A program made the translations under genes and the position numbers. The notes under the pieces are model-generated. The model was given only the letters and a program-made list of their open reading frames with translations. It was not told the DNA's origin and searched no databases. From Candidatus Moraniibacteriota bacterium (GTDB lineage: Bacteria; Patescibacteriota; Minisyncoccia; Moranbacterales; GWC2-37-73), in contig DAOOTD010000001.1 of the NCBI GenBank assembly GCA_035390125.1, forward strand, positions 31,619 through 95,618: a DNA stretch of 64,000 nt, in the 5' to 3' direction. Position 1 is the first letter of the stretch; every line of letters begins with the position of its first letter. Positions 1,965 through 59,040 of the stretch are shown here, piece by piece.

Positions 1965-2669
1965 ATGTTAAAGAAGCGGATTTTATCTATTCGTGGATAT
2001 ATAAGCGTGAAAACGATAATTATTGTTCTGATTTTAATTGCGACTTTGTATGTTTTTCAGAATAAATATGAGGAAATAAATAATCTGTCCATTATTAAAA
2101 ATAGCAGGGAAAATGGAGCATTATTTTATCTGGAAGGATTATGGAAGAATATGAAAAAAATTCAAAGAATAAGCGAAGGAAGGTCGCAAAGAGCCATGGA
2201 ATTATTTGAAGAAGTAAAATTAATCAAAGAAAAGTCAGGACTTTTTTCTCTAAAAATACCGAAGAGCTGGAATGTTATCAATGAAGAAGGTCCGGATAAA
2301 AAACAAATTTCCAAGATAGTTATTGAAAATTCGCGTTTTTTACAGCACAACGAAGATAACCAAATTTATTATGATGATGGAGCGCAATTAGTCATTCAAG
2401 TTGTTAGGGGTGAAAACAAAAACACAAATTTATCTGACAGTCCCAATGATCAGATGGTTGTCAAGACAGGAAATATAAATGTAGGGAGTTATAAATCGAA
2501 ATATAATATTATTAAAGATAATAATGTAAAAAAAGGAGAAATAATTAATGCGCATGTCATGCACAATGGAAATATATATAATTTTCAGCTGGTTGATAAT
2601 CCAAGTACATTTTCCAATGGAGAATTTTCTTTTCAAGAAATATTGCAATCATTTCAATTTTTAAAATAA
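1965..2669 (+). CDS. Hypothetical membrane-anchored protein (N-terminal TM helix)
   Basis: 234-aa ORF starting 3 nt after the lysS stop. Hydrophobic N-terminal segment. No recognisable motif. Confidence 0.45.
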   Translation: MLKKRILSIRGYISVKTIIIVLILIATLYVFQNKYEEINNLSIIKNSRENGALFYLEGLWKNMKKIQRISEGRSQRAMELFEEVKLIKEKSGLFSLKIPKSWNVINEEGPDKKQISKIVIENSRFLQHNEDNQIYYDDGAQLVIQVVRGENKNTNLSDSPNDQMVVKTGNINVGSYKSKYNIIKDNNVKKGEIINAHVMHNGNIYNFQLVDNPSTFSNGEFSFQEILQSFQFLK

Positions 2670-2765
2670 CAGCAAATAAGAATAAATAGGTTTTGGAAAT
2701 AAATCCAACAAAATCATGCCAAGATAGGGTGAAAGATATGATTATTTCAGGTTGTACTATATATG

Positions 2766-2906
2766 CAGTCCGTAGCTTAATTGGGAAAGCATCTATCAGG
2801 GTATATATGGGGAGTATTTGACTGGTTATATTGATATAGTTTTGTGATCAGCCAGTATTTCTCATATAGATAGAATGGCATGTTGGTTCGAATCCAACCG
2901 GACGGT
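2766..2906 (+). tRNA. tRNA-like gene with a ~65-nt insertion interrupting the anticodon arm (intron-containing tRNA or degenerate tRNA; identity undetermined)
   Basis: 5' acceptor cagtccg. U8. D-arm gctt/aattggga/aagc with A14, G18G19, A21. 5' anticodon-stem candidate tctat (2792-2796), with complement ataga only at ~2866-2874. Perfect T-arm gttgg-TTCGAAT-ccaac (2882-2898). 3' acceptor cggacgg plus discriminator t. One A·G mismatch in the acceptor stem. No contiguous 5-7-5 anticodon arm is present. Confidence 0.4.
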
Positions 2907-2912
2907 CAAAAA

Positions 2913-2938
2913 GAACGCACTGGGGTGTGTTTTTTTTA
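2913..2938 (+). terminator. Rho-independent terminator (aacgcac-tggg-gtgtgtt + T8)
   Basis: 7-bp stem with one G·U, followed by TTTTTTTT, directly after the tRNA-like gene. Confidence 0.6.
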
Positions 2939-3029
2939 GTTTTAAATAAGCTAAAATAAAAGATTTTTTCTTGCAAATAAAGCTGTTTAATAGTAAAATT
3001 AAACATATATTTACTTATTTTTTATCAAT

Positions 3030-4322
3030 ATGCTAGACATAAAATTTATCAGGGAACATGCTGAAGAAGTTAAGAAAAATTGCAAAAACCGCAGTGTAAA
3101 ATGCGATATAGATGAGCTTTTGGAATTAGATAAAATTCGTCTCAGCCAATTGCAATATGTTGAAGAACTTCAGGCTGAAAAAAATAAATTAAATGAATTG
3201 TTGCCTAAAACCTCAGGAGAAGAAAAAGCAGCTTTGCTTGAACAGGGGAAAGCCGTGAAAGAAAAACTGGCAACGGAAGAGCCGAAGCTTGAAAAAATGA
3301 AAAATGAATTTCAGGAAATTCTGATGACTATTCCTAACATGACTCATCCGGAAGTTAAAGTCAGTGATAATGAAGACGACAATCCTGTTTTGGAAGTTGT
3401 GGAAGAACCTGCAAAATTAGATTTTAAACCATTGGATCATGTACAAATTGCAGAAAATCTGGATCTCATTGATTTCGAAAGGGCGACTAAAGTAAGCGGT
3501 GCGAAATTTTATTATCTGAAAAATGAATTGGTTTTTTTGGAACAGGCGCTTATAAATTATGCTTTGGAAGTTGCAACTAAACATGGGTTTACTCCTTTTT
3601 CTACTCCTGATCTGGCCAAGAAAGATGTTTTGGAAGGGCTGGGCTTTAATCCGCGTGGTCAGGAAACACAAATATACAATATTGAAAATTCTGACATAAG
3701 CCTTATCGGCACAGCCGAAATAACTATGGGAGGCTACCACATGAACGAAATAATCGATGAAAAAAATCTGCCTAAAAAATATATCGCGCTTTCTCATTGC
3801 TATCGCACAGAAGCTGGAGCTTATTCTAAATTTTCCAAAGGCATCTTCAGAGTCCATCAGTTCACAAAAGTGGAAATGTTCCAATATGTGATGCCGGAAA
3901 AAAGCGAAGAAGCTCATAGGGAAATCTTAGAAATTGAAAAAGAAATTTTCAAGGGCTTGGGTGTTCCTTTCAGGGTCATTGATCATTGCACGGCTGATTT
4001 GGGCGGTCCATCTATAAGAACCTTTGATTTGGAAGCCTGGATGCCTGGCAAACCCAATAAAGAGGGAACAATGGGAGACTGGGCGGAAGTAACATCAACT
4101 TCCAATTGTACCGACTATCAATCCAGAGGGCTGAACATAAAATACAAAAAAGATGACGGTAAAAAAGAATATCTGCATATGCTCAATGGTACGGCTGTGG
4201 CTACGACGCGGGCGCTAATCGCTGTTTTGGAAAATTACCAACAGGCAGATGGCTCTGTGGTTGTTCCAGAAGTTCTGCGCAAATACATGCCGGCGAACAT
4301 GGAAAGTATAAAGAAAAAATAA
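3030..4322 (+). CDS. serS: Seryl-tRNA synthetase
   Basis: 430 aa. N-terminal coiled-coil arm. Class II core motifs (YRTEAGAYSKFSKGIFRVHQF; GTAVATTRALIAVLE). Confidence 0.9.
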   Translation: MLDIKFIREHAEEVKKNCKNRSVKCDIDELLELDKIRLSQLQYVEELQAEKNKLNELLPKTSGEEKAALLEQGKAVKEKLATEEPKLEKMKNEFQEILMTIPNMTHPEVKVSDNEDDNPVLEVVEEPAKLDFKPLDHVQIAENLDLIDFERATKVSGAKFYYLKNELVFLEQALINYALEVATKHGFTPFSTPDLAKKDVLEGLGFNPRGQETQIYNIENSDISLIGTAEITMGGYHMNEIIDEKNLPKKYIALSHCYRTEAGAYSKFSKGIFRVHQFTKVEMFQYVMPEKSEEAHREILEIEKEIFKGLGVPFRVIDHCTADLGGPSIRTFDLEAWMPGKPNKEGTMGDWAEVTSTSNCTDYQSRGLNIKYKKDDGKKEYLHMLNGTAVATTRALIAVLENYQQADGSVVVPEVLRKYMPANMESIKKK

Positions 4323-6020: not shown

Positions 6021-6674
6021 GGACAAGCAATAAAAAAAGCAGGTGTTTAATTAATTTATTAAAAAAACATCGCCGCAAAACAGTAAAAATATTTTAAAAA
6101 TTCGGGTGGAAAAAATACATCCCGATGCATATCAACAAGATGTGCGTGAGGATGTGTTTTTTGTTCATTTTAAATTTTTTTCAAGGCTGATAAATCAGGC
6201 GCGTCCCAGTGAATCGAAGGAAAACCCCCTTTCGTTTCAATTGATTACGTTTTTAAGTTAGGGGAGTCTGACAAGTTTTTGTTTTTTAAAAACTTGCCCC
6301 GCTCAGCTTTGATTAAGATAATTTGGTGGTCGGGCATATTCGAGATTTCTGTTTATTTGAAGCTTCCTTTCAAAAAAAATAAGGGTAATCGGTTTTAATC
6401 TCGAAACCGCTCCCTCCCGGCCTCCAAATTTTATAACCCCAAATCATTATAGAGAAATAATTTTATTTCTCTATAAAAATTTGCAGTTATGGATAGTATT
6501 TTGAAAACTTAATGAGAGATTAATCGCAATTTATTGCGGTTAGTCCTTTAAAACCTGTCGCTTACGCGCGGCAGGTCTGGTTGTTTATCTGAGCTATAAG
6601 TTTTCGCATCTTTTCTTTAGATAAAGATGCAAACCGTTTAAAATTTTTTCCACTTCGGTGGAAGGTTTTATTCT

Positions 6675-8152
<1,478 letters not shown>

Positions 8153-8165
<13 letters not shown>

Positions 8166-8390: not shown

Positions 8391-8415
8391 GAACACCTTA
8401 AATGGTGTTTTTTGC
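8391..8415 (+). terminator. Rho-independent terminator of the rRNA trailer (aacacc-ttaaat-ggtgtt + T6)
   Basis: Hairpin plus T-run. Homologous to the terminator at 42563-42588. Confidence 0.65.
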
Positions 8416-9487: not shown

Positions 9488-9748
9488 ATGGAAAACGAAA
9501 AGAAGGATAAAAAGGTGACTATAATCGTGAACACACGTCCACACGAATGGGATAAAAAAGAAGAAATTTCGTTCGAGGAGGTGGTTACGCTTGCTTTCGG
9601 AAGTTTCTCGGAAGACGCTGCAATCGCGTATACGGTTATTTACTCTCGAGGTAAAGATGAGAATAAGGAAGGCTCCTTGGTAAAGGGAGAGAGCGTAAAG
9701 GTTAAGGATGAGATGATATTCAATGCTACGCAAACAAATAAGTCTTAG
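9488..9748 (+). CDS. Multiubiquitin-family (beta-grasp, ubiquitin-like) protein
   Basis: 86 aa. KVTIIVNTRPHEW...ISFEEVVTLAFG...VKDEMIFNATQT matches my recollection of the prokaryotic 'Multiubiquitin' domain pattern (single copy, no C-terminal GG). It overlaps the downstream E1 gene by 26 nt. Confidence 0.45.
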   Translation: MENEKKDKKVTIIVNTRPHEWDKKEEISFEEVVTLAFGSFSEDAAIAYTVIYSRGKDENKEGSLVKGESVKVKDEMIFNATQTNKS

Positions 9749-10904
9749 CCCAGACTTAAAAAAACTTCAGGACGAGGGCTACGAAATTGAAGTCAAGAGT
9801 GGTTATTTGCTGGTACATCATGTGCCGTATGTGAATTCCCAAAAGGAGATTGCTTACGGCACGCTGGTGTCCAAGTTAGAGCTGGCTTCAGATAAAACGG
9901 TCAACCCTGTGGGCGACCATGTTATGAGGTTTATTGGCGAGCATCCATGTAACCATGACGGAACTGTTATTACCGCTATACAACACGCAAGTAACAACGA
10001 ACCTATTGTTGATGGGTTGACTACAAATCATAGCTTTTCCAGTAAACCTCCATCCGGACAGTATCCTGATTATTATCAAAAAATAATCACCTACGAAAGA
10101 ATTTTGTCATCACAGGCGAAGCATATTGACACTTCGGTAACCGCAATAACTTTCAAAACTATTGAGCCAGACGATGAAGAATCCGTACATCACTACATCG
10201 ATACAAATTCTACACGTGCCGACATTGGTTTAATATCAGCGAAACTCAAAGACGTAAGGGTGGCGATTGTCGGTTTGGGCGGAACTGGTTCTTACGTCTT
10301 GGATTTTATTTCGAAGACTGAAGTAAGAGAAATCCATTTATTTGATGCCGACGATTTTCTTCAGCATAACGCATTTAGGTCTCCGGGTGCTGCTTCCAAG
10401 GAAAAGCTGGATGAAAGACTCAAAAAGGTTGATTATTTTCATGGGGTGTATTCCAAAATGCACAAGAAAATTTTTTCTAGAGAATACCACCTGACAGATT
10501 CTAATTTAGAAGAAATATCGGGAATGGATTTCGTATTCATTTGCATTGACGAAGGAAAAATTAAAAAGCAAATAGCTGAGAGATTGATAGAGAAAAAAAT
10601 ACCATTTGTGGATACAGGGATTGGAATTCAATCAATCGACGGCGCTTTAATTGGCTGTATCCGCACTACCATGGCTACTCCTGAAAAAAATGATCACCTT
10701 GGACGAAGGATTGATTTCTCTGACGGAGGACATGATGCTTACACACAAAATATCCAAATCGCCGAACTTAACGCGCTTAACGCTTCGTTGGCTGTAATTA
10801 AGATGAAAAAGCATTTCGGATTTTACTATGACCAAGAAAAGGAATATAATTCAAGTTATGAAATTAGCATTAATAAAATAATCAACGATGAGACTAACTC
10901 CTAA
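9723..10904 (+). CDS. E1-like ThiF/MoeB-family adenylyltransferase with a ~160-aa N-terminal extension (possible E2-like domain)
   Basis: RVAIVGLGGTGSYVLDFI (Rossmann GxGxxG). DADDFLQHNAFRSPG. DFVFICIDEGKIKKQIAE...VDTGIG. These are typical of the ThiF/E1 fold. The N-terminal 160 aa are unassigned and contain GEHPCNHDG. Confidence 0.75.
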   Translation: MLRKQISLSPDLKKLQDEGYEIEVKSGYLLVHHVPYVNSQKEIAYGTLVSKLELASDKTVNPVGDHVMRFIGEHPCNHDGTVITAIQHASNNEPIVDGLTTNHSFSSKPPSGQYPDYYQKIITYERILSSQAKHIDTSVTAITFKTIEPDDEESVHHYIDTNSTRADIGLISAKLKDVRVAIVGLGGTGSYVLDFISKTEVREIHLFDADDFLQHNAFRSPGAASKEKLDERLKKVDYFHGVYSKMHKKIFSREYHLTDSNLEEISGMDFVFICIDEGKIKKQIAERLIEKKIPFVDTGIGIQSIDGALIGCIRTTMATPEKNDHLGRRIDFSDGGHDAYTQNIQIAELNALNASLAVIKMKKHFGFYYDQEKEYNSSYEISINKIINDETNS

Positions 10905-19921: not shown

Positions 19922-20461
19922 ATGGCTGAAAGTAAAAAACCAGTATTGATGGGACCGAAAACAGAAGAGGGGATAAAAAAGGTTACCCAGAATCTCAAAA
20001 GAGAATCGGTCTTAAAGTCGGGCGGATTCGCCTTTTTGAAGTCCGGTTTAGCCCCAAACTGCCAAAGCTGTATCTTTAGCCACGAGTGCGAGCATTACGC
20101 GCCTGAAGCCAAATTTTGCCGAGCAGTGCTGGAATTTGAGAGCCAATTGGAGGACCAAATTATGGCTTTGCCCCAGATTCAGGAAATAGACCGCATTTTG
20201 GTCAAAAGGCTCGTGAGAAACTATGGCTTCCTATATATCACGGATAAGTGGTTAGCCAAAGCCTCTCCGTTCCTATTGGAAAACAAGCAGTTTGATTTTC
20301 AGCCAATCCTGAAAACCAGGACAGTTTATGAGCGCCTCATAATCCACTTCTGCAGTGCTTTAGGATTAACTCCGGAAGCTAGAAGCAGAATCGGACTGAA
20401 TGTGGCACAGACATATAGTTTGGCTAAAGAATTAAGCGAACTGGAATATGACGAAGATTAA
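19922..20461 (+). CDS. Putative terminase small subunit (assigned by position only)
   Basis: 179-aa ORF immediately upstream of, and overlapping, the large terminase gene. No diagnostic motif. Confidence 0.3.
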   Translation: MAESKKPVLMGPKTEEGIKKVTQNLKRESVLKSGGFAFLKSGLAPNCQSCIFSHECEHYAPEAKFCRAVLEFESQLEDQIMALPQIQEIDRILVKRLVRNYGFLYITDKWLAKASPFLLENKQFDFQPILKTRTVYERLIIHFCSALGLTPEARSRIGLNVAQTYSLAKELSELEYDED

Positions 20462-21986
20462 ACCCATCACCAGAGAAAAACTGATTGAATACAAAAAAGA
20501 CATTGTTGTCTTTCTTCAGGAACAATACATCCTAGAAGATGGTAAGCCGATTAAACTGGAGGAATTTCAAAAGAAAATCCTCAGAGATATTTTCCAGACC
20601 AAAAATACAAATGGTTTCAGGAAATACAACCTGGTTTTGATTGGCGTGCCAAAAAAGAATGGAAAATCCACGATGGCATCGGCAGTGGCTTTGTATTCCT
20701 TGTTTACTGAAATGAACGGCGAAGTTTACGGAGCGGCAGGCGACAAGGATCAGGCCAAAATTATTTTCCAGATGACCAAGCGAGCCATTGAAAGAAATCC
20801 CATTTTGCTTGATTCAGTGAGAATCTACAAAGATGAAATTGTGGTTCCCAGCACAAACAGTGTCTATCGCGTTCTCTCCGCTGACGCCCCAACTGCCCAT
20901 GGTTTGAATCCCTCCTGCGTGATTTTCGATGAACTTTGGAATCAACCCAATCGTGACCTGTATGACGCGCTAACGCAAAGTCCAGTCCGAAAAGAACCGC
21001 TGACTTTTGTGGTAACTTACGCCGGAACAGACCAGACCAGTTTGCTCTATGACATCTATCAGACAGGAATGCAAAAGCGAGACTCCAAAATGTATTTTTT
21101 CTGGAGTGAAAATAATTTGGCGAGCTGGGTGAATGAGGAATATCTGGAACAGCAACGGATGCGTCTGCCAGCTGGAGTGTATCAACGACTCCATGAGAAC
21201 AAGTGGGTGCAGGGTGAAAATGCGTTCATTCAAAAATCGGAAGTGGAAGCCTGTAAAGATTATGCTTTGAAGCCCCAGCTTAACGGCAGGGAAAATATAA
21301 AGTATTATCTGGCAGTGGATTTGGGATTAATCCGCGACAGAACAGTTTTGACGATTTGCCACAAAGATAAAAATGATAACCTTATTTATCTCGACTTCAT
21401 CAAAACTTATCAAGGCACCAAAAAGAACCCGGTGCTCATCAGCGACATTGAGTCGGATATCCTTTGGGCGAATCAAAATTTCAACATCAGAAAAGCCATT
21501 TTGGATATCTGGCAGATGAAAAACAGCGCCCAGAAATTAAAAAGGATGGGAGTGAGAATAGAAGAATTTACATTCACATCAAGCACTATTCAGAAATTAT
21601 CCCAGAACCTCTTCTACTTGTTTCATAATTCTCTCATCAGAATTTTCCCTTGCAAATTGCTGGAAGATGAACTACTGAGTCTGAACGCCGAAGAAAAATC
21701 GTATGGTTGGAGATTGGATCATAAGTCGGGAGGATTTTCTGACCATGTCATAAGTCTTGGGATGAGCAGTATGTTCGCCATCCAAGATGAACGGGCGAGT
21801 GCTGGAGTGCTCATTTCCGAAAGTCCAACTTTTGAAGAGTTCGAAGCCCAGCTCAAAAAAGAGGAACAGTTACGAGGCAAGGTCATTGAAGCAGGAGTAA
21901 AGAAGCCAGAACATATTAAACCTAAACAATCCTTTCCCACACTCAAAGAGTTGGAAGAGTTTCGGGCAAGGAAATACATTCTATGA
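20448..21986 (+). CDS. Phage terminase large subunit (Terminase_1-like)
   Basis: Walker A-like LIGVPKKNGKSTMAS. DELW. The C-terminal nuclease-like region contains acidic residues (AVDLGLIRDRT). Confidence 0.75.
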   Translation: MTKIKPITREKLIEYKKDIVVFLQEQYILEDGKPIKLEEFQKKILRDIFQTKNTNGFRKYNLVLIGVPKKNGKSTMASAVALYSLFTEMNGEVYGAAGDKDQAKIIFQMTKRAIERNPILLDSVRIYKDEIVVPSTNSVYRVLSADAPTAHGLNPSCVIFDELWNQPNRDLYDALTQSPVRKEPLTFVVTYAGTDQTSLLYDIYQTGMQKRDSKMYFFWSENNLASWVNEEYLEQQRMRLPAGVYQRLHENKWVQGENAFIQKSEVEACKDYALKPQLNGRENIKYYLAVDLGLIRDRTVLTICHKDKNDNLIYLDFIKTYQGTKKNPVLISDIESDILWANQNFNIRKAILDIWQMKNSAQKLKRMGVRIEEFTFTSSTIQKLSQNLFYLFHNSLIRIFPCKLLEDELLSLNAEEKSYGWRLDHKSGGFSDHVISLGMSSMFAIQDERASAGVLISESPTFEEFEAQLKKEEQLRGKVIEAGVKKPEHIKPKQSFPTLKELEEFRARKYIL

Positions 21987-23533: not shown

Positions 23534-23688
23534 CCGGAGTTCTTTGAAAACTAAAAAAAGAAAACCGATAAGTTAATGGATGGAGAGACAGGATGGACGG
23601 GTTGATTTTCGCCGATATAAATGTAATAATAAAATCAACAATTAAATGCCTAACCCTTGTGAGTAAAATCGCAAGGTATGGTATGAAA

Positions 23689-23735
23689 ACCGACTAAAGT
23701 GTATTAAGCTCTCCATCCAGAGCACTTTAGTCGGT
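23689..23735. repeat. Perfect 13-bp inverted repeat accgactaaagtg / cactttagtcggt with a 21-nt spacer
   Basis: Seen directly. A direct copy of aaaaccgactaaa recurs at ~23834. Confidence 0.5.
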
Positions 23736-23850
23736 CATGTCTCGAAAGGGATATGGGTGTCCGCAAGGACATCGCTGGTGGGGAGCTTTGTGTTTTTCTG
23801 CCAGCGAAAACTGGCAGTTTTTTAATTCATTAAAAAAACCGACTAAAAAA

Positions 23851-27346: not shown

Positions 27347-28270
27347 ATGGCAATCTATGAATCGCAAATTAATACCTGGGCAAATCAAGGAGCGACAGTA
27401 AGTGCTGCCGCTACTTATACTTCGGTAAAAGCAGCTCTTGAACACGAAAAATCTCCCATAAAGGAACTTATTGCAAATAAAAAAGTAATTGTTTATCTTC
27501 AGGGTTCATACAGAAACGGAACTAATATCCGTGGCGACAGCGACGTGGATATTATCGTTGAATTGAAAAAAACTTTCGGACACGATTTATCCAGTCTTTC
27601 CAAAGAAGAGGCGATCCATCATGAATTATCCCATAGCCCGGCTACTTATACTTGGAAAGATTTTCGTTTGGACGTAATCAAAGCGCTGGAAAGTTATTAC
27701 GGAAAACTTCTTGTTGATTCTAGCGGTAATAAATCAATAAAATTGTTGCCGACATCCGGCAGAATTAAAGCCGATATTGTTCCAGTTATTCACTTTAGAA
27801 AATATTGGTCATTCAGTGGGTCGAATGATTATCTGGCGGAAGAAGGCATAAAATTTTATCACCTGAAATCTGGACATGCTATCGTGAATTATCCAAAACA
27901 TCATTATGATAATGGCGTTGAGAAAAATGATAAAAACAGAACAGCTGGATTATTCAAGCCATCTGTCAGGGTTTTCAAAAATGCACGAGAATATCTCATT
28001 GACAAGAGATTAATCACTGGCGACATTGCTCCGTCCTATTTTTTGCAGAGCCTTATTTATAATGTTCCGGACAGTTGTTTTTGCAACAGCAATCACGATA
28101 CCTACTTCAATGTTCTCAAACATCTTTATGAAAATTCTCTGGATGAATTTATTTGTCAGAATGAACAGACGCTGCTTTTCGGAGATACACAGGAGCAATG
28201 GAAAAAAGATGATGCGGAAAAGTTTATTGCTAATCTTGTTTATCTTTGGGATAACTGGGAAACGATATGA
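27347..28270 (+). CDS. cGAS/DncV-like nucleotidyltransferase (SMODS-domain CD-NTase) of a CBASS-type system
   Basis: GSYRNGTNIRGDSDVDIIV (GS...G...[DE]hDh Pol-beta NTase motif in the SMODS-characteristic form). Third acidic motif IKADIVPVIHF. Confidence 0.6.
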   Translation: MAIYESQINTWANQGATVSAAATYTSVKAALEHEKSPIKELIANKKVIVYLQGSYRNGTNIRGDSDVDIIVELKKTFGHDLSSLSKEEAIHHELSHSPATYTWKDFRLDVIKALESYYGKLLVDSSGNKSIKLLPTSGRIKADIVPVIHFRKYWSFSGSNDYLAEEGIKFYHLKSGHAIVNYPKHHYDNGVEKNDKNRTAGLFKPSVRVFKNAREYLIDKRLITGDIAPSYFLQSLIYNVPDSCFCNSNHDTYFNVLKHLYENSLDEFICQNEQTLLFGDTQEQWKKDDAEKFIANLVYLWDNWETI

Positions 28271-28857
28271 TGCACCCCTATTCAACGAATACCAATGAAA
28301 GAAAAATAATCCCTTTCTATCTTGCTTGTATAGCTATTGTTTTAACCTGGGGAATGAGCGCAATTCTTGCAAAACTGCAAATTTCTTTTCCTTGGTGGGC
28401 AAGCGCGCCATCAGTTATGGGAATATACGGTCTACTATATAGCGTATTTGACAAATTTATTTGGCGAAAACCCTTTTTGAAAAAATTGGGGATAATTAAA
28501 ACCCCGGATATTTCAGGAAAATGGAGGGGGAAGCTACAATCATCTTTCAATTCTCAAGATTTCGTAAATACTGATGTTAAAATATCTCAAACCTGGACAG
28601 AAATTGAAATTTTACTAAAGACCGATAATTCTTGTTCAAATAGTACGGTTGCTTCAATAATGGTAGGGGTTTCAAATAATGCCTCGCTTCATTATCAGTA
28701 TCAGAATAATCCCAAATCAAGTTCTGTTGATAGCATGCAAATCCATTATGGAACAACTTATTTATCCTGTTCTGGTGATAAATTAGAGGGCGAGTATTAT
28801 TCTGGGCGTGGTCGTCAGAATATTGGAAGCATAGAACTGCACAAGGTTATTGAATAA
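28267..28857 (+). CDS. Two-TM membrane effector (Cap15/S-2TM-beta-like) translationally coupled to the CD-NTase
   Basis: ATGA overlap with the upstream stop. Two N-terminal TM helices (IIPFYLACIAIVLTWGMSAILA; SAPSVMGIYGLLYSVF) followed by a ~110-aa beta-rich C-terminal domain. Confidence 0.5.
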   Translation: MMHPYSTNTNERKIIPFYLACIAIVLTWGMSAILAKLQISFPWWASAPSVMGIYGLLYSVFDKFIWRKPFLKKLGIIKTPDISGKWRGKLQSSFNSQDFVNTDVKISQTWTEIEILLKTDNSCSNSTVASIMVGVSNNASLHYQYQNNPKSSSVDSMQIHYGTTYLSCSGDKLEGEYYSGRGRQNIGSIELHKVIE

Positions 28858-57858: not shown

Positions 57859-59040
57859 ATGAGAATCCTATTTTTCAACTATGAATATCCTCCTTTAGGT
57901 GGGGGTGCAGGGAATGCTTCATTTTATTTGCTAAAGGAATACGCTAAAAATTCGGAAATTAAAGTTGATTTTATCACTTCTTCAATCAACGAAAAACACC
58001 AGATTTTGAAATTAAGTGAAAATATTACTGTTCATAAGCTTCCAATAGGTAAAAATGCTGAAAATATTCACTATCAATCAAAAAAGGAGCTTTTAAAGTA
58101 TGCCTGGGTTTCCTATAAATTCGCAAAAAAGCTGGTAAGGGAGAATAAGTATGATCTTACTCATTCATTTTTTACTGTTCCATGCGGCATAGCATCTTTT
58201 ATTTTAAAGAATAAATTCAAAATTCCTTATATAATTTCACTGCGCGGATCTGATGTTCCGGGATATAGTGAAAGATTCACTATTTTATACAAATTCATCA
58301 CTCCGATCATAAAAAAAATATGGAAAAGTGCCTGCTTTGTTATTGCAAATAGCTGTGGACTGCGGGAGCTTGCACTTAAATCAAAAACAGAAAAAGAAAT
58401 AGGAATTATTTATAACGGCATAGACACAGGTGATTTTTTTCCGGATGCAAATAAAAAAGACGAAAATAAATTCACTATAGTGTGTATCTCCCGTATTACC
58501 AGAAGAAAAGGAATCAAATTTTTGATTCAGGCGGTTGGAAATCTTCTAAAAAAATACAAGAACATAAAGTTATTTATTGTAGGGGATGGGGATGAATGCG
58601 ATTCTCTCAAAAATTTAGTACAAACAATAGGAATTGGATCGGAAGTTACTTTCACTGGGCCTATTTTGCATGAAAATATTTTAGAATATTACCAAAAATC
58701 GAATATTTTTGTATTACCATCGCTTAATGAAGGAATGAGCAATACTATGCTAGAAGCCTTGTCTTGCGGTTTGCCAATAATTGCAACCGATACAGGTGGA
58801 ACTAAGGAATTAGTGCAAAATGAAAAAAATGGTTTTATCGTCAAAATGAAAGATCCAGATGACTTAGCTGAAAAAATTGAAAAAATTATGATCAATAAAA
58901 ATTTGGAAATTCAAATGGGCAATGAAAGCAGAAAATTATCTGAGAAGTTTGATTGGTCGGTTGTTGCTGGAGAATATATTGATTTATACCGTAATGCGAT
59001 TGAATTGAAAAATATTAAAAGTAAAAATAATAATAGTTAA
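57859..59040 (+). CDS. Glycosyltransferase family 4
   Basis: EGMSNTMLEALSCGLPIIATDTGG (GT4 C-terminal motif). Confidence 0.8.
   Translation: MRILFFNYEYPPLGGGAGNASFYLLKEYAKNSEIKVDFITSSINEKHQILKLSENITVHKLPIGKNAENIHYQSKKELLKYAWVSYKFAKKLVRENKYDLTHSFFTVPCGIASFILKNKFKIPYIISLRGSDVPGYSERFTILYKFITPIIKKIWKSACFVIANSCGLRELALKSKTEKEIGIIYNGIDTGDFFPDANKKDENKFTIVCISRITRRKGIKFLIQAVGNLLKKYKNIKLFIVGDGDECDSLKNLVQTIGIGSEVTFTGPILHENILEYYQKSNIFVLPSLNEGMSNTMLEALSCGLPIIATDTGGTKELVQNEKNGFIVKMKDPDDLAEKIEKIMINKNLEIQMGNESRKLSEKFDWSVVAGEYIDLYRNAIELKNIKSKNNNS

Follow-up and report, generated by a model that had tools for sequence, protein, structure and literature searches.

A tRNA-like gene with a rebuilt, elongated anticodon arm occupies positions 2766-2906 of the forward strand in a 64,000-nucleotide (nt) stretch of contig DAOOTD010000001.1, from a Candidatus Moraniibacteriota bacterium (Patescibacteriota; GenBank assembly GCA_035390125.1). 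The whole of this stretch is called the window below. A tRNA body is read from end to end of the gene, with a hairpin of about 70 nt and a G-rich bulge in place of the anticodon arm. Judged by its conservation among related genomes, the feature is real, a conserved tRNA-like non-coding RNA, and is not a chance match. The reading we favor, with somewhat better than even confidence, is that the locus is a gene in its own right whose product, a stable tRNA-shaped RNA of about 140 nt, is a non-decoding mimic or scaffold and not a tRNA awaiting splicing. The RNA is a new form of tRNA-like non-coding RNA, for which no description was found in the searchable literature; the same literature held no described tRNA-like RNA from Patescibacteria or Parcubacteria and no short bacterial tRNA introns outside group I.

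The acceptor stem pairs CAGTCCG (2766-2772, positions 1 to 7 of the tRNA numbering) with CGGACGG (2899-2905), leaving A2.G71 as the sole mismatch in seven base pairs (bp), and the discriminator base U73 follows at 2906. U8 (2773), A9, the D-arm (GCTT-AATTGGGA-AAGC, 2775-2790) and A26 fill positions 2773-2791. The next six nucleotides, TCTATC (2792-2797), represent the former anticodon stem plus C32 and form the 5' strand of a proximal helix, P-a, whose 3' strand is GATAGA (2869-2874). Between these strands the fold places a 6-nt bulge on the 5' side, AGGGTA (2798-2803), which contains a GGGU motif, and then a long imperfect hairpin, P-b, of 65 nt (2804-2868), in which about 25 bp are interrupted by an internal loop and capped by an apical loop of 12 nt. 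The variable region, ATGGCAT (2875-2881), is 7 nt long and ends in U48, which pairs with A15 as the Levitt pair. The T-arm, GTTGG-TTCGAAT-CCAAC (2882-2898), is supported by its sequence, by a local Rfam match and by the fold. CCA is not encoded in the window copy, which reads TCAA, while four relatives encode TCCA. RNAfold returns a cloverleaf for the window RNA, in which the TCTATC/GATAGA helix closes the long hairpin. The fold of the whole RNA has a z-score of -2.8, with 1 of 200 shuffled sequences as good, and the fold of the arm alone has a z-score of -4.6, with 0 of 200 as good.

The original prediction for this region, made from the sequence alone, had described a tRNA-derived gene having an acceptor stem with one A.G mismatch, U8, a D-arm and a T-arm, and a 5' strand at 2792-2797 that pairs only across an insert that itself folds; the parts and the pairing are all found as it placed them. 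It had also remarked that no contiguous anticodon arm with a 5-bp stem and a 7-nt loop exists, and ARAGORN in default mode accordingly detects no tRNA or tmRNA (transfer-messenger RNA) anywhere in the 64-kb window. When ARAGORN is run in intron mode, a check proposed with the prediction, positions 2766-2907 are called as tRNA-Glu(CUC), the intron being 62 nt long and following position 31. The Rfam tRNA model, RF00005, yields only a local match to the T-arm of the window copy, at 13.3 bits against a gathering threshold of 29 bits; an orthologue, from locus L033, scores 37.9 bits to the same model with a 65-nt insertion state. The features of a canonical tRNA that are present include the 7-bp acceptor stem with discriminator, the D-arm with A14 and G18G19, the T-arm with a TTC-type loop, and the Levitt pair 15:48. 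The one that fails is a contiguous 5-bp stem and 7-nt loop with U33 and a purine at 37, as the insert opens the loop.

Orthologues were sought at the serS (seryl-tRNA synthetase, SerRS) loci of relatives, with intron-mode ARAGORN and with a covariance model derived from the initial five copies. Contigs carrying closer and more distant SerRS homologues were then added. The result is a set of 11 distinct orthologues: the window, L244 (identical to L245), L227 (identical to L228), L235, L002 (identical to L150), L003 (identical to L237-240), L004, L247, L033, L243 and L246. At all 11 loci, found on Moranbacteria-like contigs, serS is the next gene downstream of the RNA gene and shares its strand. 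The opposite flank is variable, and the gene there may encode a 234-aa protein, a Gmad2 protein, an HD protein or a 55-residue open reading frame (ORF). Identity of SerRS among the genomes that bear an orthologue falls as low as about 64%. No insert-free orthologue was found at this locus among the serS relatives examined. A metagenome scan with the pattern CCGTAGCT-N84-114-GGTTCRANTCCNNNCGG returned, among the matches listed, only L150 as a member of the family; most of the matches listed in this length-selective scan look, by sequence only, like archaeal intron-containing tRNAs. Viral contigs scanned with a pattern that includes the bulge gave ordinary tRNAs only.

In a model-guided alignment of the 11 orthologues, 95% of cells in paired columns hold standard pairs, and 21 of 38 pairs show double (compensatory) changes. 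All six helices are supported; none of 500 shuffles reaches the observed pairing values, and slid controls are 30-45% paired. An independent analysis of five sequences by MAFFT and RNAalifold recovers the same helices. Compensatory changes are spread across the molecule. They occur at acceptor pairs 2:71 and 4:69, at four of six pairs in P-a, in both sub-helices of P-b, and at two of five pairs in the T-stem, where GTTGG/CCAAC alternates with GTGGG/CCCAC inside the clade of the window copy. The Levitt pair covaries as well, being A15:U48 in 5 of 11 members and G15:C48 in 4. A14, G18 and G19 are conserved, and U73 is invariant across members. The most divergent member, L246 (2061-2203), has C at position 8 and G at position 14 instead of U8 and A14, so that both partners of a tertiary pair are changed, and a T-loop that reads UCCGAAU in place of UUCGAAU.

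Core and insert evolve differently. Core identity between the window copy and other clades is 63-79%. Compared with L033, L243 and L246, the insert of the window copy is unalignable, with an identity of 0.48-0.58 against 0.63-0.74 for the core. Despite this turnover of sequence the insert is 61-74 nt long in every member, and every arm (11/11) folds as a 6-bp stem, a 5' bulge and a long hairpin. That the insert is always present and constrained in length points to a working part of the mature RNA. Conservation of the paired cells, the insert fold, the promoter and the terminator (see below) together are taken to rule out both a chance match and a decaying pseudogene.

The only conserved single-stranded motif is a GGGU at position 34 or 35 of the RNA in 10 of 11 members; in six members it extends to GGGUGA(U/A). 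The bulge of L243 lacks the motif, and GGGUGAU appears instead in the 8-nt apical loop of its long hairpin, a relocation which suggests that the GGGU motif itself matters. GGGUGAU is complementary to the AUCACCU of the 16S rRNA tail, a match that reaches 9 nt in L246 and only 4 nt in the window's clade. A single-stranded GGGUGAU might dock this tRNA-shaped RNA on the anti-Shine-Dalgarno tail of 16S rRNA, as a ribosome-directed regulator would. Three other kinds of pairing were considered. Pairing of the bulge with NCCA in the manner of a T-box was rejected, because a UGGN-type bulge is present in only 2 of 11 members, and a pseudoknot between bulge and apical loop was rejected as not conserved. 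A search for antisense targets within the window produced only two chance 13-nt matches, both on the same strand and neither the reverse complement that pairing needs.

The bulge also suggests the ancestry of the gene. After C32 the sequence reads C-U-AGG-G-U in L002 and L033, C-U-GGG-G-G in L246, C-A-AGG-G-U in L003, L004 and L247, and C-(A/G)GGGUA in the window's clade; that is, U33 is replaced by A in L003, L004 and L247 and deleted in the window's clade. N-G-G follows C32 in 11 of 11 members, with a further G in most, and C1-G72 is found in 10 of 11. Bacterial tRNAPro is characterized by C1-G72 together with G35, G36 and G37. The body of the RNA is therefore probably derived from a tRNAPro(NGG) gene into which a hairpin was inserted precisely at the 38/39 junction, and on this reading the bulge would correspond to what was once the anticodon loop (C32-U33-NGG-G37).

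Signals for transcription flank the gene on both sides. Upstream, a -35-like GTGAAA (2729-2734), an 18-nt spacer and a -10-like TGTACT (2753-2758) end 7 nt before C1 on the same strand. The layout (T/G)TGAAA-N17/18-TGTA(A/C/G)T-N7-C1 is common to 9 of 11 loci, and from this conservation we infer that 2729-2758 is the promoter of the RNA gene, although it falls below the threshold of the consensus scan. Downstream, a terminator-like hairpin with a T-run (2908-2937, forward strand) resembles an intrinsic terminator and has an equivalent in all 11 orthologues. The gene thus looks to be expressed; the original prediction had drawn the same conclusion from the terminator, and conservation of both signals strengthens it. 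A separate promoter-like site, TTGCAA-17-TAAAAT (2971-2999, forward strand), precedes serS (3030-4322, forward strand; Pfam Seryl_tRNA_N and tRNA-synt_2b), and similar TTGC-N17-TA(A/T)AAT boxes stand ahead of serS in the orthologous loci. Given this site, the RNA is more than a leader of serS.

We propose the following model. The transcript would be matured as a tRNA is, by RNase P cleavage at C1, 3' trimming and addition of CCA, and would fold into an L-shape. The hairpin would be kept in the mature RNA, barring decoding on the ribosome, and would serve with the bulge as an arm or handle that binds a putative partner. Such a design would resemble that of Y RNAs of the YrlA type, in which a tRNA-like module would confer stability and access to tRNA enzymes while a joined helix bears the binding site. 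As a guess, candidates for the partner include ProRS or a TrmD-type enzyme reading G35-G37, the anti-Shine-Dalgarno tail of 16S rRNA, or another protein. To our knowledge, few bacterial RNAs copy the whole shape of a tRNA without decoding, namely the tRNA-like domain of tmRNA and the YrlA Y RNAs. Each of those two led to a distinct cellular machine, and the Patescibacterial RNA, if the proposal is right, would be one more such RNA, in the poorly understood candidate phyla radiation (CPR). Its clear anatomy, in which a G-rich bulge and a length-constrained arm are added to a tRNA body, offers a handle for testing.

Several points weigh against this proposal and bring in its rivals. We infer the retention of the hairpin in the mature RNA from sequence; the intact 7-nt loop C-U-AGG-G-U of L002 and L033, with the hairpin between 38 and 39, is what an intron-bearing tRNAPro would be expected to show. 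No partner was found, the window having no TROVE gene and no obvious gene for an RNA-binding protein adjoining the RNA. All members were found by way of serS loci, which biases both their distribution and their genomic context, and the alignment behind the pair counts was fitted to a covariance model, so that the counts lean towards structure. Several close serS relatives (L001, L241, L242, L230-234) have no copy at the locus, and there the RNA is therefore either dispensable or moved. The first of these points leads to the alternative that the gene is a functional tRNA gene, ancestrally tRNAPro(NGG), whose hairpin is a new short intervening sequence that is removed to give a decoding tRNA. 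Removal might be by protein enzymes, such as a double-strand-specific nuclease with an RtcB-type ligase, or by excision without ligation, as happens to intervening sequences (IVSs) of rRNA. ARAGORN in intron mode does build a perfect cloverleaf for L002 and L033, as tRNA-Pro(AGG) with the insert at position 38; the C-U-GGG-G-G loop of L246 fits too, the insert turns over as a spacer might while the tRNA body is conserved, and its long, near-perfect duplex might suit RNase III. Across members, however, the splice models disagree, giving Glu(CUC) for the window, Asp(GUC) for L003 and L004, and Pro(AGG) for L002 and L033. U33 is nearly universal in decoding tRNAs, whereas genes in which it has become A (L003, L004, L247) or has been deleted (the window's clade) keep accumulating compensatory changes; the T-stem change within the window's clade means that selection continues without a canonical anticodon loop. 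The bulge-helix-bulge (BHB) motif cannot be drawn on any of the 11 folded arms, each of which has a single bulge, on the 5' strand, opposite an unbroken 3' strand. The insert is held to 61-74 nt and is never absent, and the variable region has 7 nt. Rfam matched no intron of group I or group II, no ribozyme and no known small RNA, whether across the window at gathering thresholds or across 2650-3030 at E<=10, where only noise and the T-arm appeared; Intron_gpI (RF00028) specifically gave no match at either level. Patescibacteria are unusually rich in tRNA introns, but the group I introns of bacterial tRNAs are 184-894 nt long (PMC13011429); the insert of 62 nt, lacking any group I or II signature, is far below that minimum and, as the original prediction had held, too short for a group I intron. 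We judge a functional tRNA with a removable hairpin to be unlikely, and excision by an enzymatic route to be equally so or slightly more so. In particular, there is a rather small chance that a third kind of intervening sequence in bacterial tRNA genes is seen here for the first time, a stem-loop of about 60-70 nt at 38/39 of tRNAPro that is cut out by protein enzymes or left unligated to give a two-piece tRNA. Excision, if it occurs, would give bacteria their first tRNA intervening sequence that belongs to neither group I nor group II, and CPR bacteria would have an enzymatic pathway for tRNA splicing or tRNA fragmentation. Of the 55 window ORFs with 110 aa or more, 47 were scanned against Pfam, and no RNA-splicing family, TROVE, EndA or RtcB was found among them, in a search that covers 64 kb of the genome, for EndA and ligase genes as for the rest.

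The constant position next to serS raises the idea of a regulator tied to that gene, either in cis, through a terminator that attenuates read-through into it, or in trans, as a tRNA mimic that signals the state of aminoacylation or translation. In its favor, the RNA keeps its place and strand ahead of serS at 11 of 11 loci while the opposite neighbor varies, and a structured RNA with a terminator ahead of an aminoacyl-tRNA synthetase gene recalls T-box leaders. Yet the RNA has its own promoter 7 nt before C1, serS keeps its own conserved promoter 3' of the terminator, and no T-box or other leader family in Rfam matches 2650-3030 at E<=10. The features by which SerRS would recognize the RNA are missing, as there is no long variable arm and the discriminator is U73 and not G73. 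Bacterial tRNASer is identified by a long variable arm and G73. Relatives exist whose serS lacks the RNA, and since members were found through serS, and synteny downstream is conserved too, the adjacency may simply be inherited. We therefore consider a role tied to serS improbable. Less credible by far is a decaying tRNA pseudogene broken by insertion of a palindromic element. The failure of default tRNA finders, the A.G mismatch in the acceptor, and the loss of U33 and of an encoded CCA in the window copy might suggest decay, but 11 orthologues with SerRS only about 64% identical retain every helix by compensatory changes, with promoter and terminator likewise conserved. Within the clade the 2:71 mismatch persists, as A.G or A.A, and no further copy of either half of the insert is present in the window at up to 3 mismatches, which speaks against a repeat or a miniature inverted-repeat transposable element (MITE). 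A relic of an attachment (att) site for integrative elements, or a gene kept only as one, is just as hard to credit. Three integrase genes do lie in the window at 11.5-23.5 kb, and in L002 and L003 an insertion of 163-170 bp after the gene duplicates its last 50-59 nt or so, with L247 as the empty site. But in the window the gene is complete, is not flanked by direct repeats and has no repeat elsewhere, the integrase genes lie over 8 kb from it on the far side of the 16S gene, and covariation spans the entire RNA, a conservation of whole structure that att use would not explain. Use as an att site is common among functional tRNA and tmRNA genes. The original prediction had offered an unusual intron, a decaying tRNA or a tRNA-derived attachment remnant. 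Its view of a gene that is tRNA-derived, outside group I and apparently expressed stands, whereas none of these three readings fits well: the first is disfavored by the discordant splice models, loss of U33 in two clades, lack of a BHB motif and constant insert length; the second is contradicted by purifying selection on the body, with compensatory changes even within the window's clade; and the third fails for the window copy, though relatives do show duplication of the 3' end.

The insertions in L002 (3596-3732) and L003 (3700-3839), which correspond to an empty site after 2357 in L247, are conserved multi-hairpin sequences of about 165 bp. Each ends in a copy of the 3' strand of the T-stem, the 3' strand of the acceptor stem, CCA and the terminator, giving direct repeats of 50-59 nt, and each also holds a CAGTCC copy of the 5' acceptor strand. 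They have no Rfam match and could represent a miniature integrative element or, alternatively, a tandem copy that has degenerated. The duplicated 3' end indicates that the gene serves as an integration site, as tRNA and tmRNA genes do.

Among characterized systems, the closest in design to the stable tRNA-shaped RNA proposed here are the YrlA Y RNAs (RF02553; Chen et al. 2014, PMC4201824). Both have a tRNA-like domain with D- and T-arms, an acceptor-like stem and a covarying Levitt pair 15:48, joined through the position of the anticodon stem to a long helix. YrlA of Mycobacterium smegmatis is cut by RNase P and receives CCA, and the helix of YrlA Y RNAs carries a Ro60-binding motif, GNCGAAN0-1G (PMC4201824). 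A regular-expression search found this motif in 0 of 11 members of the present family, and Rfam RF02553 is unmatched at E<=10 in 2650-3030. YrlA adjoins an rsr (TROVE) gene, and none appears in the window scans or in the gene tables of related loci. The topologies differ too: in the Patescibacterial RNA next to serS, the acceptor stem carries both ends of the molecule and a loop caps the long helix.

A precedent for this design comes from GC-rich soil contigs. Among the matches listed in the length-selective scan, these contigs make up a second class and contain single or tandem genes of tRNA topology with an anticodon-arm insert of about 50 nt bearing GGGCCGAAGG, which matches the Ro60-binding motif GNCGAAN0-1G. 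The candidates are located at L087 5296-5585 (forward strand), L130 3109-3235 (forward), L131 861-1490 (reverse), L160 738-1078 (reverse) and L189 407-851 (reverse). Ro60 genes (TROVE plus vWA_Ro60) lie directly 3' in L087 (6033-7670) and L130 (3207-5087). Rfam YrlA hits on the soil contigs are all sub-threshold, each bridging halves of adjacent units. By sequence, these genes look like Y RNAs in un-permuted tRNA topology, and bacteria would therefore indeed build tRNA-shaped RNAs with a protein-binding anticodon arm.

Other known systems share single features with the RNA. The group I intron tRNAs of Patescibacteria (Nakagawa et al. 2026, PMC13011429) come from the same phylum, have an insertion in the loop that finders miss, and receive shifting isotypes from ARAGORN. 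Those introns are self-splicing ribozymes of 184-894 nt at 33/34, 35/36 or 36/37, which follow a U, end in G and leave a conserved anticodon after splicing (PMC13011429), whereas the insert here is 61-74 nt long, has no catalytic core, follows position 38 and leaves no conserved spliced anticodon loop. Archaeal BHB introns resemble it as short structured inserts (tens of nt) in or near the anticodon loop that pair with the exon, but they show two 3-nt bulges separated by 4 bp where the present arms have one bulge of 6-8 nt on the 5' strand only, and the host here is bacterial by its 16S gene. Like tmRNA, the RNA has an acceptor and T-arm module, a long helix replacing the anticodon arm, and a gene used as an integration site. 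Unlike tmRNA, it has a complete D-arm, no pseudoknots and no tag reading frame, ARAGORN -m finds no tmRNA, the G3.U70 pair of its tRNAAla-like domain is present in only 4 of 11 members of the family here, and its length is about 140 nt compared with at least 260 nt. The IVSs of rRNA, which RNase III removes, are likewise hairpins at a fixed site with variable sequence and a conserved stem; those are sporadic among strains and lie in rRNA helices, while the insert here is in every member and constrained in length. A T-box leader has a specifier loop and an antiterminator in the mRNA leader of an aminoacyl-tRNA synthetase gene, and here there is no Rfam match and serS has a separate promoter. 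Genes of the kind described here are silently missed by tRNA gene finders and annotation pipelines, and calls made in intron mode (Glu, Asp, Pro) are unreliable. A second intron-bearing tRNA candidate in the window, a low-stringency ARAGORN call of tRNA-Lys at 58168-58554 with a 298-nt intron, lies inside a glycosyltransferase ORF (57859-59040), lacks Rfam support and was rejected as a false positive. The window holds no canonical tRNA gene.

Upstream of the RNA gene lie lysS (514-1962) and a gene for a 234-aa membrane-anchored protein (1965-2669). A 131-aa protein encoded 3' of serS was considered as a partner and rejected; it matches nothing in the PDB and no family, and L243 and L246, which bear the RNA, lack it. 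In some relatives serS has a long leader (L002 3790-4003, L227 2140-2315) in which UUCACCCUGUUAAAUAA pairs with UUAUUUAACAGGGUAAAUG; this pairing would sequester the AGGG ribosome-binding site and the start codon of serS. The leader is absent from close relatives, namely L244, L235 and the window, and may be an inserted palindromic element or a lineage-specific regulator. The window is bacterial, with a 16S gene at 6673-8164 that scores 1403 bits to the bacterial small-subunit rRNA model, and its closest SerRS relatives are metagenome-assembled genomes of Patescibacteria, several labelled Moranbacteria. This 16S gene is solitary, without a 23S gene, 5S gene or spacer tRNA after it, and a LexA-like gene follows at 8412.

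From 9723 to 30000 the window represents an island of mobile-element and defence genes. The island includes DUF6791+ThiF (9723-10904), three tyrosine integrases (11552, 13576, 22682), a Toprim protein (15235), a D12 methyltransferase, ParB, a terminase large subunit (20448-21986), a PIF1 helicase and Fic. A nucleotidyltransferase gene followed by a gene for a Cap15 effector (27347-28857) resembles a cyclic-oligonucleotide-based anti-phage signaling system (CBASS). Just after an integrase gene in the same island, a LOOT RNA (Rfam RF03000) is found at 23647-23773 on the forward strand, scoring 87.8 bits against a threshold of 46.4.

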